Positions 6,677-56,005 of a stretch of 64,000 nucleotides of DNA are shown piece after piece. Made by a program: the position numbers and the translations under genes. Origin of the DNA: Anaerolineae bacterium (lineage in GTDB: Bacteria; Chloroflexota; Anaerolineae; B4-G1; DUEL01). The DNA lies in assembly GCA_034434635.1 (NCBI GenBank), contig DAOTYX010000079.1:16212-80211 (forward strand). Direction: 5' to 3'. The notes beneath the pieces were generated by a model. That model did no database searches and was not told the DNA's origin. It worked only from the letters and a program-made list of their open reading frames with translations. Position 1 is the first letter of the stretch. Every line of letters starts with the position of its first letter.

Positions 6677-6752
6677 CCTTTTCCTCCCTGTCGTGGAATG
6701 GACACGGTGCTCTGACGACTCGCCGTGCCGGGCGTGGTCTCGTCGCCGTGCC

Positions 6753-6776
6753 GGGCGCGGTCTTCCGACCGCGCCC
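6753..6776. terminator. GC-rich hairpin GGGCGCGGTC-ttcc-GACCGCGCCC downstream of the PIG-L gene (repeat family C).
   Basis: A perfect 10-bp stem. The same stem sequence recurs at 8326, 17241 and 49105. It lies 3' of the minus-strand gene ending at 6791. The preceding ~20 nt are tandemly duplicated (cgccgtgccgggcg(t/c)ggtct). Confidence 0.45.
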
Positions 6777-8228: not shown

Positions 8229-8325
8229 GCGCGTCTCCTGTGTATGCTGTCAGGGCAGCGGCTGGCGGGCCAGGGGACGGCCAGACTATACCATCATCGG
8301 CGTGGTTGCGCAAGTGGAAAAGATT

Positions 8326-8348
8326 GGGCGCGGTCTCCGACCGCGCCC
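8326..8348. terminator. Family C hairpin GGGCGCGGTC-tccg-ACCGCGCCC downstream of the beta-helix gene
   Basis: The same stem as at 6753 and 49105. It lies 3' of the minus-strand gene ending at 8374. Confidence 0.4.
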
Positions 8349-8373
8349 AACGGCGACTCGACGAGACGGAGCG

Positions 8374-17056: not shown

Positions 17057-17120
17057 GCCGCTCCTCCCCAGCCGCACCACCGGGCAACCTCCCTCCTGGA
17101 GCCTGCTCGAACAGCCCCGT

Positions 17121-17264
17121 AGCCAGCGCACCCCCGTGCGCTGGCGCATCTCTGTGCCTCGGCAGGCGGCTTTGGGGTGCCGCCCCACGGCAATCCGGGC
17201 AGGCACATGGGTAAGGGAGACCGTCAAACAACACGATGCTGGGCACGGTCTCTTGACCGCGCCC
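17121..17264. repeat. Intergenic cluster of three hairpins: GCCAGCGCAC-cccc-GTGCGCTGGC, a family A element (17164..17183) and a family C terminator (17241..17264)
   Basis: Three perfect or near-perfect inverted repeats between the rplS stop (17343) and the GT4 start (17056). Confidence 0.5.
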
Positions 17265-17342
17265 AGCACTGGAAGGCAGTGGGCTGCCGGGATTGGGAGG
17301 CAACCGCACAGGGAACCGTGTAGGGACGCAGTAAACCGCCCC

Positions 17343-17782: not shown

Positions 17783-17821
17783 ACAGGCACCTCGCAGGTG
17801 CCCGTCATCTGAGGTCACCTG
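17783..17821. repeat. Family D element ACAGGCACCT-cgc-AGGTGCC…TGAGGTCACCTG overlapping the stop codon of the M23 gene
   Basis: ~39 nt closely similar to 27143..27181. It supplies the in-frame TGA (AGG TGA) of the minus-strand gene ending at 17815 and a downstream hairpin. Confidence 0.5.
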
Positions 17822-19401
17822 GGGGTGTTGTCGGAAAGGAGACCGTTGATCTCGTCTACAGCGCATTGACAGGCCTCGCGCACCTGCCCCCCGCGCACCA
17901 TCCGCCCGTCATACTCCTGGTCAGCCTGCTCCGCGGTCCAGCCGGACAGCACCAGCGGGAGCGGACCGCTGCCTGCGGGCAGCCACTCCCCATTATAGCG
18001 CCGGGCGAAGTGGAGATGGGTGGCGTCAGCGTAGCCGCCCTCACACGACGGATGGCCAATAGCCTGGCCCTGCTCCAGCCACGTGCTGGCCTCCACCCGG
18101 TCCTGCGCCGCGATGTGCATATACGTGAGCACCCAGCCGCTCTGCTCGTAACCGTCGCCGTCCAGATCCACCACCACCTCGCCGTAGTCGCTGCGCAGGA
18201 CCAGGCCCGGCGCGGCGGCAGTGACCCAGTCGGCGGTGACGGTGCAGCCTAACTCGTCGGCGGGGGCGAAATCGAGCGCCGCCCAGCCACTGCCACGCCC
18301 CCAGCCACCATGGGGACCACCCGTCAGGTACCAGGTCTCCCCCTCCGGCCACGGCAGGCGGAGTTCGGGCTGCGTCAGCCCCGGCGGCAGCAGCGGCTCC
18401 ACCCCATAGGCGAAGGGGTTGCCAAAGAGACGCTGGTAAGTGGCGGCGAAGCCGTCCGGTCCCACCGCCGCCGTCCACTCTGCGCCATAGAATAACTGTC
18501 CCAGAAGGCTCTGCACGGCCACCGTGCCGGCATTCAGGCCCGGTGAGATGCCCATGCGGCTGCCGTCGGCCAGGTGGATGACCGTCCAGTCGCCGTACTT
18601 CCAGCCATAGTAACCGCTGTTCAGTTCCGCTGCCGTCCAACTCAGCTGCTCGAACAGCCCCGCCTGGGTGCCCTGGTTGACCGTCACCGGATGTTCGAGG
18701 GTGTCGGCGGGCGGGTCGGGATCGGTGACCCAGCCGGCGCGCAGTTCCAACAGCGCCAGCAACACGCGCGGACCCACGCTGTACCGCTGCGCCACCAGGC
18801 GCACGATCTCGGCGCCGGTCAGCGTGTGTCCCTCCACTTCCTGAGTATAGCCGGCCAGGTAGCCGGACTGCGCGGCGACGAAGCCCTCCAGGTCGAAATG
18901 GATGTAGGCGGGGCCGTAGACCAGTTCGCTGTCGGGCAGGAGTTTGACCGCCGGGCCGAACTGGCTGGCACCGACGGGGATGGTCAGCCGTTGGCCGGGC
19001 CAGATGGCGTCGCCAGTGAGGCCATTGGCGGCGGCGATCTCGTCCACCGTGCAGTCGAAGGCGTAGGCGATGCCGCTCAGCGTGTCGCCGGTCTGCACTT
19101 CGTAGACCTGGGAGCGGGTGGGGTCGGGCCGGCCCGTCGGGGTTGGGTTGGGTGTGGGAGTGGCATCGTAGACGCCGGGGTAGGCGGGAGTCGGTGTGCC
19201 GCCTGGGGTGAGAGGAGGTTGCGCCCCCCGTTGGCCGACAGTCAGGTGTCCCGCCCCACCTGGCGGGTTCTGCAAGGCGATCTCCTCGCCAGGGGAAGGC
19301 GCTATCGGGCGCAGGCTGAGGAAGATCAAGACCGCGGCCAACATCAGCGCGACGACCGCGGCTCCGCCGATGAGGTGGGAGGAATCTCGTGTTACTTTCA
19401 T
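17815..19401 (-). CDS. Secreted LysM domain-containing M23 family metallopeptidase
   Basis: Signal/TM (HLIGGAAVVALMLAAVLIFLSL), LysM (YEVQTGDTLSGIAYAFDCTVDEIAAANGL) and a C-terminal M23 domain with GHPSCEGGYADATHLHF. The start is taken at MKVTRD. Confidence 0.7.
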   Translation of the reverse strand: MKVTRDSSHLIGGAAVVALMLAAVLIFLSLRPIAPSPGEEIALQNPPGGAGHLTVGQRGAQPPLTPGGTPTPAYPGVYDATPTPNPTPTGRPDPTRSQVYEVQTGDTLSGIAYAFDCTVDEIAAANGLTGDAIWPGQRLTIPVGASQFGPAVKLLPDSELVYGPAYIHFDLEGFVAAQSGYLAGYTQEVEGHTLTGAEIVRLVAQRYSVGPRVLLALLELRAGWVTDPDPPADTLEHPVTVNQGTQAGLFEQLSWTAAELNSGYYGWKYGDWTVIHLADGSRMGISPGLNAGTVAVQSLLGQLFYGAEWTAAVGPDGFAATYQRLFGNPFAYGVEPLLPPGLTQPELRLPWPEGETWYLTGGPHGGWGRGSGWAALDFAPADELGCTVTADWVTAAAPGLVLRSDYGEVVVDLDGDGYEQSGWVLTYMHIAAQDRVEASTWLEQGQAIGHPSCEGGYADATHLHFARRYNGEWLPAGSGPLPLVLSGWTAEQADQEYDGRMVRGGQVREACQCAVDEINGLLSDNTPR

Positions 19402-19486
19402 CTGTTCGGAGTGTAACACAAACCGGGATGCGAGGCAAACCGGATACCAGGGGGGGCCAGGCACCCCCTGGCACCTCCAGACTCAG

Positions 19487-19515
19487 TTGACGACCGGCAC
19501 GGGAGCGGGTACAAT
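19487..19515 (+). promoter_or_regulatory. Sigma70-like promoter TTGACG–17 nt–TACAAT reading into the tandem-repeat region
   Basis: TTGACG at 19487..19492 and TACAAT at 19510..19515, with a spacer of exactly 17 nt. Confidence 0.4.
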
Positions 19516-19760
19516 GACGGTGTCTCCTGCGGAGGCCTGAAGGTCGTAGCCCCTGGAGGCCGCAGCCCTTCAAGGCCATAGCCCTTCAACGCCGTAGCCC
19601 CGGCATCCCAATGCCGGGGCGGCAGGGAGTACAATGGCGGTGTCTCACGCGGAGGCCCGAAGGCCGTAGCCCTTCAACGCCGTAGCCCCGGCATCCCAAT
19701 GCCGGGGCGACCGCGGAGGCCTGAAGTGGCAGGTACCTGGAAGGTGCCTGGCACCTTTGG
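19516..19760. repeat. Tandemly duplicated structured region (two ~85–115-nt units, each ending in the family A hairpin GCCCCGGCATCCCAATGCCGGGGC) with an internal 18-mer duplication
   Basis: Unit 1 spans about 19512..19625 and unit 2 about 19626..19710. Both contain tacaatg(a/g)cggtgtctc…gcggaggcc…gtagccc…cttcaacgccgtagcc. Flanking small palindromes are ccagggggggccaggcaccccctgg and ggtgcctggcacc. Confidence 0.6.
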
Positions 19761-19931
19761 AACGGCACAGGGAGGTGCACCATCGCTGCGCGACGACCCT
19801 TCAATACCACGGCCTACCGTTACCCCAACGAGGGGCTGATCCTGGCGATCACCCTGCTACTGGTTTGTATCGTCATCGCCGTCACCGCTACCGCCACCGT
19901 CTGCCTGAGCGCGGTCTTCGTCGCAGGCGCG

Positions 19932-20618
19932 GTGGTGCTGTCCTACCTGATGACCCGCGCCCAGCACCAGGCACTGGTGGAGCATGGACTGCCGGTCACG
20001 CCGCGGCACGCCCCCGAACTGCACGCCCTGGTGACCGAGGTCGCTGCCCGCCTGCAGACCGGGCCGGTGAAGGTCTTCGTGGTCCGCGATCGCACGCTCA
20101 ACGCCTACACCTTCGGCCTGGTGCCGCCGCAGGTGGTGGTGCTCAACTCGGGCCTGTTGGAGGTGCTGGATCGGGACGAGGTGGCCTTCGTCGTGGGGCA
20201 CGAACTGGGGCATGTCCGCCTGGGCCACACCTGGCTCAACTCGCTGATCGGCGGGATGGCGGGCATTCCGAGCCCCTTCGCCGCCTCGGCGCTCCTGGCG
20301 GCGGCTTTCCTGTGGTGGAACCGCGCCTGCGAGTACTCAGCCGACCGGGCGGGGTTGTTGGCCTGCGGGCGACCTGAGAAGGCGATCTCGGCGCTGGTGC
20401 GCCTGGCGCTGGGGGAGAGAGGGCGTAGTGTGGACCTGGAGCGGGCGCTGCGGTACATCCAGGCCGAGGATGACGACCCCTTGAGCAGCCTGGGCGAGGT
20501 GCTCTCGACCCATCCGATGATGGGCCGGCGCATCGAACAGTTGCGCCGCTACGCCGCCTCCGCGGAGTATCGTCGCCTGCAGCCGTTGCTGGCGGCTAAC
20601 GCGACCAGGGCGCTGTGA
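19932..20618 (+). CDS. M48-family zinc metallopeptidase (HtpX-like)
   Basis: HELGH zinc motif (FVVGHELGHVRLGH) and a downstream E. The in-frame upstream region back to the stop at 19722 encodes a hydrophobic helix but has no ATG/GTG/TTG, so the true start is unresolved. Confidence 0.6.
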   Translation: MVLSYLMTRAQHQALVEHGLPVTPRHAPELHALVTEVAARLQTGPVKVFVVRDRTLNAYTFGLVPPQVVVLNSGLLEVLDRDEVAFVVGHELGHVRLGHTWLNSLIGGMAGIPSPFAASALLAAAFLWWNRACEYSADRAGLLACGRPEKAISALVRLALGERGRSVDLERALRYIQAEDDDPLSSLGEVLSTHPMMGRRIEQLRRYAASAEYRRLQPLLAANATRAL

Positions 20619-27097: not shown

Positions 27098-27142
27098 CGT
27101 GAACCTCCGTTTGTCGGGCGGTGCCAGGTGAGTTACCAGGTG

Positions 27143-27181
27143 ACAGGCACCTATCAGGTGCCTGCCACCTGACGTCACCTG
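27143..27181. repeat. Family D element ACAGGCACCT-atc-AGGTGCCTG…TGACGTCACCTG overlapping the stop codon of the thioredoxin-like gene
   Basis: Closely similar to 17783..17821. It provides the AGG TGA stop of the gene ending at 27175 and a 9-bp-stem hairpin. Confidence 0.5.
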
Positions 27182-33787: not shown

Positions 33788-33872
33788 CCTGTCCAAATAA
33801 CCCTCGCAGCCGACACATCCCTATGCAGCAGCAGGCGGCATTGGGATGCCGCCCTACGGTTATTTGGACAGG
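33788..33872. repeat. Nested palindromic element (family A): 15-bp outer stem CCTGTCCAAATAACC…GGTTATTTGGACAGG enclosing GGCGGCATTGGGATGCCGCC
   Basis: Perfect inverted repeats. The core GCATTGGGATGC is also found at 17164..17183, 19597..19620 and 19685..19708. It sits in a 462-bp gap inside an ABC operon. Confidence 0.55.
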
Positions 33873-34226
33873 CACCTTCTGGAAGACTGGCCCTTTGGAG
33901 GGACGGAGGGGCGCGGCAGACTGTGCCCCTCCCAACCCATGTACCTGTTCTGGCGTAATTACCTACCCGGCTGCCCGCCGCCGTGCGCCGATTGGAAATC
34001 GGCCTTTCTGGGCGCCTGCGGCGCCAGGGTCGGCGCAGGCCGACCGCCGGCCGAAGGCCCCAAACGGGCGACTTCAGCCGGCGTGGGTAAGCAGTAGAGT
34101 AACTGCTGGGGGCAACATAGACAAAGTTTCAGCTGGTCAGGCTGGCGGTTGAAACCGCGCCTGCTCTGTGCCAGGCATGCCTTGAGAGTGACCTCACAAC
34201 CTTCGCGAGGGACAGGAGAGGTCGGA

Positions 34227-40253: not shown

Positions 40254-41299
40254 GTGAGAGGCAACAACCCTTGCGCGTCGTCGCTTACCATGACCCCGCC
40301 GCCTTCGACTACCTGGCGGAGGAGTGGAGCAGTCTGTTGCATCGCTCCGCCGCCGACAGCCCCTTCCTCTCCCCCGCCTATCTGCACGCCTGGTGGCGCC
40401 ATCTGGGCGAAGGAGAACTGCTCCTGCTGACCGCCCGTGCGGACACCGCACTGGTCGGCGTGGCCCCGCTCTTCGCGGTCGAGCGGGCCGGCGCTGGCTC
40501 GCTCTTGCGCGTCGTCGGCTGCGAGGAGGTATCCGACTACCTGGACTGGATCGCCGCGCCAGGACAGGAGGAAGCGGTGCTGGAGGCATTGCTGGCATTC
40601 CTGGCCAGCCCCATGGCGCCGCCGTGGACGACGCTGGTGCTGTGCAACGTCCACCACGACTCCCCCACCCTGCGCCTGTTGCCCGCGCAGGCCGCCGCGC
40701 GCGGCTGGCCGGTGGCGACGGAGGTACAGGAGGTCTGCCCGGTGGTGACCCTGCCGGCCACCTGGGAGGAGTACCTGGCCGCGCTGGACAGCAAGGACCG
40801 TCACGAACTGCGCCGCAAACTGCGCCGGGCGGAGGCCGCCGAAGGGCTGCACTGGTACCTGGTGGGGCCGGAAGATGACCTGGACACAGCGGCGGAGGAC
40901 TTCCTGACGTTGATGGCACGCAGTTCACCCGCCAAGGCAGCCTTCCTCACCCCGCCGATGCGCGCCTTCTTCCACGAACTGACCCGCGTCGCCGCGGCCA
41001 ACGGCTGGCTGCAACTGGCTTTCCTGGAACTGGACGGGCGTCCGCTGGCCGCTTACTTCAACTTCGTCTACAACAACCGCGTGCTGGTCTACAACTCCGG
41101 GCTCGACTGGCAGGCGGACCCCGGCCTGGGCGCGGGCATCGTCCTCACCGCCTTCCTTATCCGCCATGCTATCGAGGAGGGGCGCCAGGCCTACGACTTC
41201 CTGCGCGGCAGGGAGGCATACAAGTACCGCTTCGGCGGCCAGGACGTGCCGGTACACCGCATCACGATCACGGCTCAACCGGGCGGCACCCATACGTGA
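40250..41299 (+). CDS. GNAT-fold FemAB/BioF2-like acyl/aminoacyl-transferase family protein
   Basis: The ATG overlaps the upstream stop (ATGA). 349 aa with C-terminal AYFNFVYNNRVLVYNSGLDW…AYDFLRGREAYKYRFG typical of the Acetyltransf_6 (FemAB-like) family. Confidence 0.55.
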   Translation: MSERQQPLRVVAYHDPAAFDYLAEEWSSLLHRSAADSPFLSPAYLHAWWRHLGEGELLLLTARADTALVGVAPLFAVERAGAGSLLRVVGCEEVSDYLDWIAAPGQEEAVLEALLAFLASPMAPPWTTLVLCNVHHDSPTLRLLPAQAAARGWPVATEVQEVCPVVTLPATWEEYLAALDSKDRHELRRKLRRAEAAEGLHWYLVGPEDDLDTAAEDFLTLMARSSPAKAAFLTPPMRAFFHELTRVAAANGWLQLAFLELDGRPLAAYFNFVYNNRVLVYNSGLDWQADPGLGAGIVLTAFLIRHAIEEGRQAYDFLRGREAYKYRFGGQDVPVHRITITAQPGGTHT

Positions 41300-41436
41300 C
41301 GACAGACCACAGACCACAGACCACGGACCACGGATCACAGACCACAGACCATCAAGTACAGTTCGTCATCGTGGTCCGTCGTCCGTCGTCCGTGGTCCGT
41401 CGTCCGCGGCCCGTCGTCCGTCGTCCGTGGTCCATC
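41300..41436. repeat. Heptad-repeat palindrome: (CAGACCA/CGGACCA)x8 on the left arm, a 15-nt centre, and (TGGTCCG/TCGTCCG)x9 on the right arm
   Basis: Tandem 7-mers read directly. The arms are largely reverse-complementary, giving a potential ~55-bp imperfect stem. It is intergenic between the FemAB-like and PHP genes. ORFs 41296..41505 and 41166..41450 are artefacts of it. Confidence 0.7.
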
Positions 41437-49104: not shown

Positions 49105-49128
49105 GGGCGCGGTCGGGAGACCGCGCCC
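49105..49128. terminator. Family C hairpin GGGCGCGGTC-ggga-GACCGCGCCC between convergent genes
   Basis: A perfect 10-bp stem between the PSP1 gene (+) and the GH1 gene (-). Confidence 0.45.
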
Positions 49129-55790: not shown

Positions 55791-55828
55791 GCGGTCATAC
55801 CCCGTGCGGCGGGTGTGCCCCAATTGCA

Positions 55829-55850
55829 GGACAACTGCAAGCAGTTGTCC
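55829..55850. repeat. Family B palindrome GGACAACTGC-aa-GCAGTTGTCC between convergent genes
   Basis: A perfect 10-bp stem. It shares CAGGACAAC…GCAGTTGTCCT with 14720..14741. Confidence 0.45.
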
Positions 55851-56005
55851 TACTTGTCTATGCAGGCGGTCCGCAGGGCGGCTATGTCCGACAAAGGCGA
55901 TGTTGCCCGTGCCTGGGAACTTGTTTTGATCGCAAAAGGTCAAGACCGTGAGGTGAAGCAGGGGAACCTGCCACCCGAGAACGCCCCTTCACCCGCCTCC
56001 GCGCT

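Follow-up and report, generated by a model that had tools for sequence, protein, structure and literature searches.

GTAG-tagged REPs have been defined as a super-family of palindromes and reported in Proteobacteria, Cyanobacteria, Chloroflexi and the PVC superphylum (Di Nocera, De Gregorio & Rocco 2013, PMC3733652). In that report, the super-family comprises 24 consensus families of short, G+C-rich perfect palindromes, which carry GTAG at one end and are extragenic. Clusters of these elements recur as tandem repeats that include adjoining DNA of varying length, and in one member of the Chloroflexi, Thermomicrobium roseum, GTAG-23 elements are clustered (PMC3733652). REP-associated Y1 transposases make use of GTAG as well, and they cut at CT beside the hairpin (Corneloup 2021, PMC8266576).

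Here we describe an array of such palindromes in a 64-kb stretch of Anaerolineae DNA (the window; G+C content, 66%). The array occupies a 379-nt intergenic region between two divergent genes, one for a LysM/M23 peptidase and the other for an M48 (HtpX-like) membrane metalloprotease. Among named homologues of the M48 protein, the best were from Anaerolineales, Anaerolineae and Chloroflexi MAGs. A first-pass annotation had read the array as a candidate ncRNA or structured leader, and almost all of the features that it listed were found where it had placed them. Our analysis suggested that the array is probably a strain-variable cluster of a GTAG-tagged REP-type palindrome, amplified together with a piece of the native promoter in the M48 leader, and not a conserved regulatory RNA.

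Results

Architecture of the array

Two tandem units, each closing with a hairpin, had been described upstream of the M48 gene. Both were present, arranged head to tail, and each closed with the same perfect hairpin, GCCCCGGCATCCCAATGCCGGGGC, which is 24 nt long with a 10-bp stem and a 4-nt loop (Table 1). The copies are 88 nt apart. In 100 shuffled sequences this hairpin did not occur at all, even when three mismatches were allowed. GTAG tags were found at 19594-19597 and 19682-19685, overlapping the first G of the stem. REPs are palindromic stem-loops of 20-40 bp with GTAG at one end, and the 24-nt palindrome of this locus has both properties. Both copies are extragenic, lying between the ATG of the LysM/M23 peptidase gene and the ATC of the M48 gene.

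The units open with heads of the form GTACAATG(A/G)CGGTGTCTC, which start at 19509 (GTACAATGACGGTGTCTC) and at 19629 (GTACAATGGCGGTGTCTC), 120 nt apart. From the difference between 120 and 88 (32 nt), the first unit is longer by two 16-nt iterations. An extra internal duplication of an 18-mer had been noted in the first unit. The extra material was indeed there, while the 18-mer was in reality a 16-nt period, repeated 4.1 times.

The unit lengths of 120 and 88 nt include the locus-specific DNA of the heads. About 45 nt of such flanking DNA, consisting of the -10 box and the promoter-proximal leader, was reiterated head to tail with the palindrome, giving a tandem cluster with flanking DNA. No TIR/TSD pair, as is expected of a MITE, was found around the units at this locus. 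A CRISPR was also considered, and was dropped because the 'spacers' were themselves repeated and there were only two copies.

Table 1. Features of the M48 leader and its surroundings (window coordinates)
Feature	Position	Strand	Description
LysM/M23 peptidase gene	ATG 19401	-	Upstream divergent neighbour of the array
Palindrome CCAGGGGGGGCC-A-GGCACCCCCTGG	19447..19471	.	Upstream of the -35; contains the 13-mer GG(G/T)GCCAGGCACC
Promoter P1 (very likely the M48 gene's own)	19487..19515	+	Sigma-70-type; -35 TTGACG 19487-19492, 17-nt spacer, -10 TACAAT 19510-19515
Head 1	19509..19545	+	-10 box and promoter-proximal leader GTACAATGACGGTGTCTCCTGCGGAGGCCTGAAGG; locus-specific DNA co-amplified with the palindrome
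16-nt micro-repeat, 4.1 copies	19536..19601	+	Iterated GTAG-tagged 5' half-arm, CGTAGCCC plus about 8 nt
GTAG-tagged REP-type palindrome, copy 1	19594..19620	+	GTAGCCCCGGCATCCCAATGCCGGGGC; hairpin proper 19597-19620
Linker and head 2	19621..19664	+	Duplicate of the -10 and leader segment, GGCAGGGAGTACAATGGCGGTGTCTCACGCGGAGGCCCGAAGG
Single 16-nt half-arm iteration, unit 2	19665..19681	+	Repeat family D3
GTAG-tagged REP-type palindrome, copy 2	19682..19708	+	Identical to copy 1; hairpin proper 19685-19708
Head 3 remnant	19711..19726	+	CCGCGGAGGCCTGAAG; also delimited as GCGGAGGCCTGAAG at 19713-19726; lacks in the window 24 nt that are kept in contig L001
Palindromes CAGGTACCTG and AGGTGCCTGGCACCT	19728..19756	.	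Second copy of the 13-mer, GGTGCCWGGCACC
Shine-Dalgarno sequence GGGAGG	19770..19775	+	6 nt before the ATC start codon
M48 (HtpX-like) membrane metalloprotease gene	19782..20618	+	Inferred start ATC (Ile codon); 278 codons and stop

The small palindromes that had been reported on both sides of the array were confirmed. The upstream one has a counterpart in L001, a second contig (see below), that is perfect, with 12-bp arms. The downstream ones would form a 9-bp hairpin in the RNA, just upstream of the Shine-Dalgarno sequence. A 13-bp palindrome, GGTGCC(A/T)GGCACC, is found within both (19453-19465 and 19743-19755), on either side of the M48 promoter and leader. L001 has exact matches to the two copies, which are not conserved upstream of the M48 genes of the relatives. 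Related palindromes, ACAGGCACCT...AGGTGCCTG, were seen in three other intergenic regions of the window (at 17783, 27138-27172 and 33866). The 13-bp sequence may represent an operator, or else a further family of small repeats.

The promoter and the start codon of the M48 gene

The near-consensus promoter TTGACG-17-TACAAT proposed in the first-pass annotation, here called P1, matched the consensus at 10 of 12 positions. It was the only promoter-like site in 19300-20000, where shuffled sequences gave an average of 0.1. The element TTGNCN-17-TACAAT was found, with the same spacing, in four relatives (L139, L140, L141 and L146), in the form TTG(G/C)C(A/G)-17-TACAAT. P1 is very likely a real promoter and the driver of the M48 gene. 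Its occurrence at equal spacing in the relatives places the array repeats in the 5' leader, where they would be transcribed.

The distance from the promoter to the ATC is 18 nt in L139, 39 nt in L140, 34 nt in L141 and 59 nt in L146. By contrast, the corresponding distance is 266 nt for the window and 274 nt for L001. The leaders of these four relatives contained neither heads, nor 16-mers, nor the hairpin. By this comparison, the palindrome cluster has lengthened the M48 leader, originally some tens of nucleotides, to about 266 nt.

The M48 gene had been said to lack a canonical start codon. The first in-frame ATG, GTG or TTG was GTG 19932, which lies downstream of the first hydrophobic helix, and the remark was therefore correct. 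Homologues aligned from 'MAAQRPYNTTAYRYP', the M of which corresponds to ATC 19782, 6 nt after GGGAGG. ATC occupies this position in six of seven DNA loci (the window, L001, L139, L140, L141 and L146), and ATG in the seventh (L144). In L001, L139, L140, L141 and L146, the ATC is likewise preceded by GGAGG.

Among the best 120 homologue clusters, 25 have M at the aligned start. In 26 others an internal Ile stands there, behind a spurious upstream extension. In-frame extensions of this kind were rejected as true N-termini, since 'KCYN', a motif in some of them, results from translation of the -10 box TGTTACAAT. From the homologue alignment, the ATC codons behind GGAGG at further loci and the origin of 'KCYN', we infer ATC 19782, with the strong Shine-Dalgarno sequence upstream of it, to be the start of translation.

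Gene callers either shorten the M48 gene or extend it upstream through the promoter ('KCYN'). The shortened database model (P0001) has 228 aa, runs from GTG 19932 and begins with V. For an M-initial version of this truncated protein, no exact-match record was found.

Two of the relatives showed further features at their M48 genes. In L140, HSP20 and Lon genes lie in divergent orientation to the M48 gene, which is consistent with a stress-protease role of M48, and the intergenic region (1420-1500) has an inverted pair of its own, GCTCGTAGTCCCCGTCCC...GGGGACGGGGGCTGCGAGC. In L146, the M48 leader (1211-1262) contains an unrelated tandem repeat, five copies of ATTCGCN, between the -10 box and the Shine-Dalgarno sequence, and CACGCAA heptamers lie upstream of the promoter. 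The leaders of M48 genes seem prone to repeat expansion in several lineages.

Variation of the array in a second contig

L001 is a second contig from the same population (JGI sample 3300059600) and encodes an identical M48 protein. Its flanks are ~99% identical to those of the window, and its array differs by unit-sized indels. One 16-nt iteration is missing relative to the window. On the other hand, L001 keeps 24 nt more of the third head, which is thus a full head with a third TACAAT. Its array amounts to 2 2/3 units, the third head being without a palindrome. The unit-shaped differences between the two contigs fit slippage or unequal recombination, and not a constrained RNA. Part of the difference in copy number could be an artefact that arose when short reads were assembled over a 90-120-nt repeat.

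The repeated -10 box might indicate tandem promoters, in which case a duplicated -10/TSS module would raise or diversify transcription of the protease at a contingency locus of variable copy number. The TACAAT of P1 recurs at 19630 in the second unit, L001 has three of them, and the copy structure differs between the strains, all as expected of such a locus. However, only the first copy has a -35. At the second, the -35 position reads CCCAAT and falls in the loop of the hairpin, so this copy was not scored as a promoter, and P1 alone would be a complete promoter, in line with the single site returned by the scan. Moreover, the TGn extension of the -10 that is present in the relatives is missing from the -10 boxes of the window. 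We consider tandem promoters unlikely.

The palindrome in other genomes

The pattern GTAGCCCCGGCATCCCNATGCCGGGGC, a 27-mer with the loop CCCN and a 5' GTAG tag, was scanned across 185,579 species reference genomes. Exact matches were found in only two, both of Chloroflexi/Anaerolineae, with CCCC or CCCT as the loop. In Chloroflexi bacterium J111 there were 14 copies, distributed over 12 contigs; many of them lie at contig ends and so break the assembly. Anaerolineae bacterium W92_265 has eight copies in five fetched stretches on four contigs, arranged in tandem with repeat lengths of about 89 and 136 nt.

In J111, the palindrome forms the core of MITEs about 115 nt long, with the ends AGGTGTATTTCAATTTTATGG... 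and ...CCACAAAACTGAAATGCGCCT (L122, L125, L128, L130 and L136). These have terminal inverted repeats and 9-bp target-site duplications, such as CCGTCTGGC, CAGACATTT and CATCCGGAG. RAYT-type single-strand transposition differs in this respect, as it makes no 9-bp target duplications, whereas these MITEs with the same hairpin have them. A second type of MITE, with CAGGACTTACGCAG ends, was also seen in J111.

A metagenome scan was performed with the untagged stem of the hairpin and a free loop. With this bare stem, 78 of 127 matches had T-runs and were ordinary terminators. The GTAG-tagged copies with a CCCN loop formed a distinct subset, in tandem arrays at unrelated loci, on the contigs L022 (five copies), L079, L081, L002 and L094. 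Half-arm iterations resembling the 16-mers of the window were found in L002, L094 and L138. Variants of the family kept the GCAT-CCCN-ATGC core, while their outer stems co-varied (GGCGGCAT, GCCGACGCAT and GGCGGGGCAT). These results showed the palindrome to be a member of a repeat family whose copies are scattered through the genomes of other Anaerolineae/Chloroflexi.

When compared with all fetched loci by blastn-short, neither the head nor the 16-mers had a match beyond L001, and the same was true of the upstream palindrome and of the downstream leader. This suggested that the palindrome alone is the family element and that the head is co-amplified local DNA. A mobile element carrying the head, with its TACAAT, as an outward promoter was rejected for the same reason, the head being without a match outside L001 among the fetched loci.

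Other repeats in the window

The 64-kb window contains seven GTAG-tagged perfect hairpins, versus about 1.2 in shuffled sequences; one of the seven is part of the inverted doublet described below. The palindrome of the array (family A) is represented by its two copies and one related doublet (33807-33860), and a degenerate search of the window with up to 7 mismatches revealed no more.

The doublet lies in a REPIN/MITE-like element (33790-33873) just after a stop codon. The element has 13-bp TIRs at its ends (TGTCCAAATAACC/GGTTATTTGGACA) and no evident TSD. It is an inverted doublet of GCAG-CCGACACATCCCTATGCAGCAGC and GGCGGCATTGGGATGCCGCC-CTAC, both of which share the CATCCCNATG core with family A. 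It is REPIN-like in being an inverted REP doublet.

A second hairpin, family B (GGGCGCGGTC-loop-GACCGCGCCC), has three perfect copies and one imperfect copy in intergenic regions (6753-6776, 8324-8350, 17235-17265 and 49105-49128). The one at 6753 carries a CTAC tag (GTAG when read on the minus strand) and is preceded by a tandem repeat of 23 nt (6720-6763). A near-identical family-B hairpin was seen in the metagenome contig L079 (about 1780-1806), beside family-A arrays. A RAYT was sought between the hairpins at 6753 and 8324, where neither of the two ORFs encodes a transposase, one product being a PIG-L deacetylase and the other a metallo-beta-lactamase-fold protein. No RAYT gene was found among six window proteins scanned.

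Further GTAG-tagged perfect hairpins have different stems: GTAGCCAGCGCACCCCCGTGCGCTGGC at 17119-17145, and GTAGGACAACTGCTTGCAGTTGTCC on the minus strand at 55828-55856. Two adjacent arrays of heptanucleotides, one of (GACCACA)n (41298-41361) and one of (CGTCGTC/CGTGGTC)n (41370-41433), are partly reverse-complementary in appearance. Together they make up a long and imperfect inverted repeat built of 7-mers, a short distance 5' of an ATG (41450).

RNA structure

As RNA, the hairpin had a folding energy of -25.2 kcal/mol (z = -4.2). The 269-nt leader folded better than shuffled sequences (z = -3.6), and this score was carried by the two perfect palindromes. The parts of the units outside the hairpin folded weakly (z about -2.3 to -2.7), with unstable centroids. 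A strong G+C-rich hairpin in a transcribed leader is reminiscent of Rho-independent terminators and attenuators. Unlike these, neither hairpin of the array is followed by a U-tract (the sequences just 3' are GGCAGGG and GACCGCG), and no terminator-like site was detected in 19300-20000.

An Rfam scan, which had been proposed as a check in the first-pass annotation, gave no RNA family at gathering or permissive thresholds. In the whole window, only two tRNAs passed the gathering threshold. In 19300-20000, with E <= 10, the best scores were below 20 bits, compared with gathering scores of 35-181.

We also weighed the possibility that the array is a functional structured leader or sRNA, each unit being an RNA module (attenuator or sensor) that acts on the M48 gene or in trans. 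The position of the units downstream of a real promoter, the better-than-shuffled fold of the leader and the stable hairpin that closes each unit all speak for it. Against it, the folding score is owed to the palindromes, terminator features and Rfam matches are lacking, and the short leaders (18-59 nt) of all four relatives are without the units. In addition, near-identical strains are separated by whole-unit indels, and the same hairpin is also found within MITEs and at loci unrelated to this one. A structured RNA of this kind is therefore improbable. The first-pass annotation, which had suggested a discrete ncRNA or a conserved structured leader, had itself named as contrary evidence repeats that occur only as duplications without conserved structure in relatives. 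This is what was found.

Discussion

The array is a real feature. It is not a novel ncRNA, and GTAG-tagged REPs are already known. To that super-family (PMC3733652), the likeness is in the short G+C-rich perfect palindrome with GTAG at one end, in the extragenic position, and in variants with co-varying stems around a GCAT-CCCN-ATGC core. It extends to the arrangement as singletons, inverted dimers and head-tail clusters reiterated with flanking DNA. The array matches these structural properties. It differs in that a promoter -10 box makes up the co-amplified flank, and in the placement of the cluster within a 5' leader, not between or after genes.

The palindrome also resembles the REPs of the E. 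coli REP/BIME and REPIN-RAYT systems, in that a GTAG guide tetranucleotide precedes the hairpin on its 5' side, the form in which TnpA-REP recognises its substrate (Nunvar 2010, PMC2817692; Bertels & Rainey 2011, PMC3116915; PMC8266576). In BIMEs, on the other hand, the orientation of the REPs alternates, whereas the array at the M48 gene is strictly direct (head-tail).

The array may have arisen, and may still be changing, by slipped-strand events or by unequal recombination, with the hairpin and stretches of short homology as the sites. Alternatively, it may have originated by nicking beside GTAG by a REP-associated HUH/Y1 transposase. The half-arm iterations depart from the full stem exactly after GTAGCCC, at C|T.

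P1, which retains its -35, would be the sole full promoter of the cluster. The transcripts would bear two very stable hairpins in the 5' UTR, without U-tracts. These would at most modulate the stability of the mRNA or elongation, like REPs elsewhere, and would not constitute a dedicated riboregulator.

It is very improbable that the tandem structure or its variation is a product of short-read mis-assembly: the 88-120-nt repeats are on the scale of reads or k-mers and the two contigs disagree exactly within the repeat, but both contigs are independent and have at least two units with the same junctions, the SNPs within the units are consistent with divergence, and analogous arrays are present in many independent assemblies.

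With the array read as a REP-type cluster, a more far-reaching view would make it a population-variable expression dial for a stress protease, in which head-to-tail amplification driven by the REP would alter, from strain to strain, how many -10/TSS modules and stable 5' hairpins there are and, with the conserved weak AUC start, would tune the output of the HtpX-like protein, a contingency locus having been made from a selfish repeat. We regard this view as speculative and hardly probable.

For annotation, the M48 gene should be corrected to the ATC start inferred above, as the database model lacks the first transmembrane helix. The conserved AUC start is a by-product of this analysis, and a more unusual one than the array. 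The locus also carries a caution: tandem, promoter-proximal units that end in hairpins mimic a riboregulator, yet here they are most probably a REP-type repeat cluster.

These results document a family of GTAG-tagged palindromes in uncultured Anaerolineae, in the form of MITEs, inverted doublets and head-tail arrays, and suggest that it can co-amplify promoter DNA. If REP clusters in 5' leaders change expression, the M48 locus, which exists in two natural variants, would be well suited to testing such an effect.
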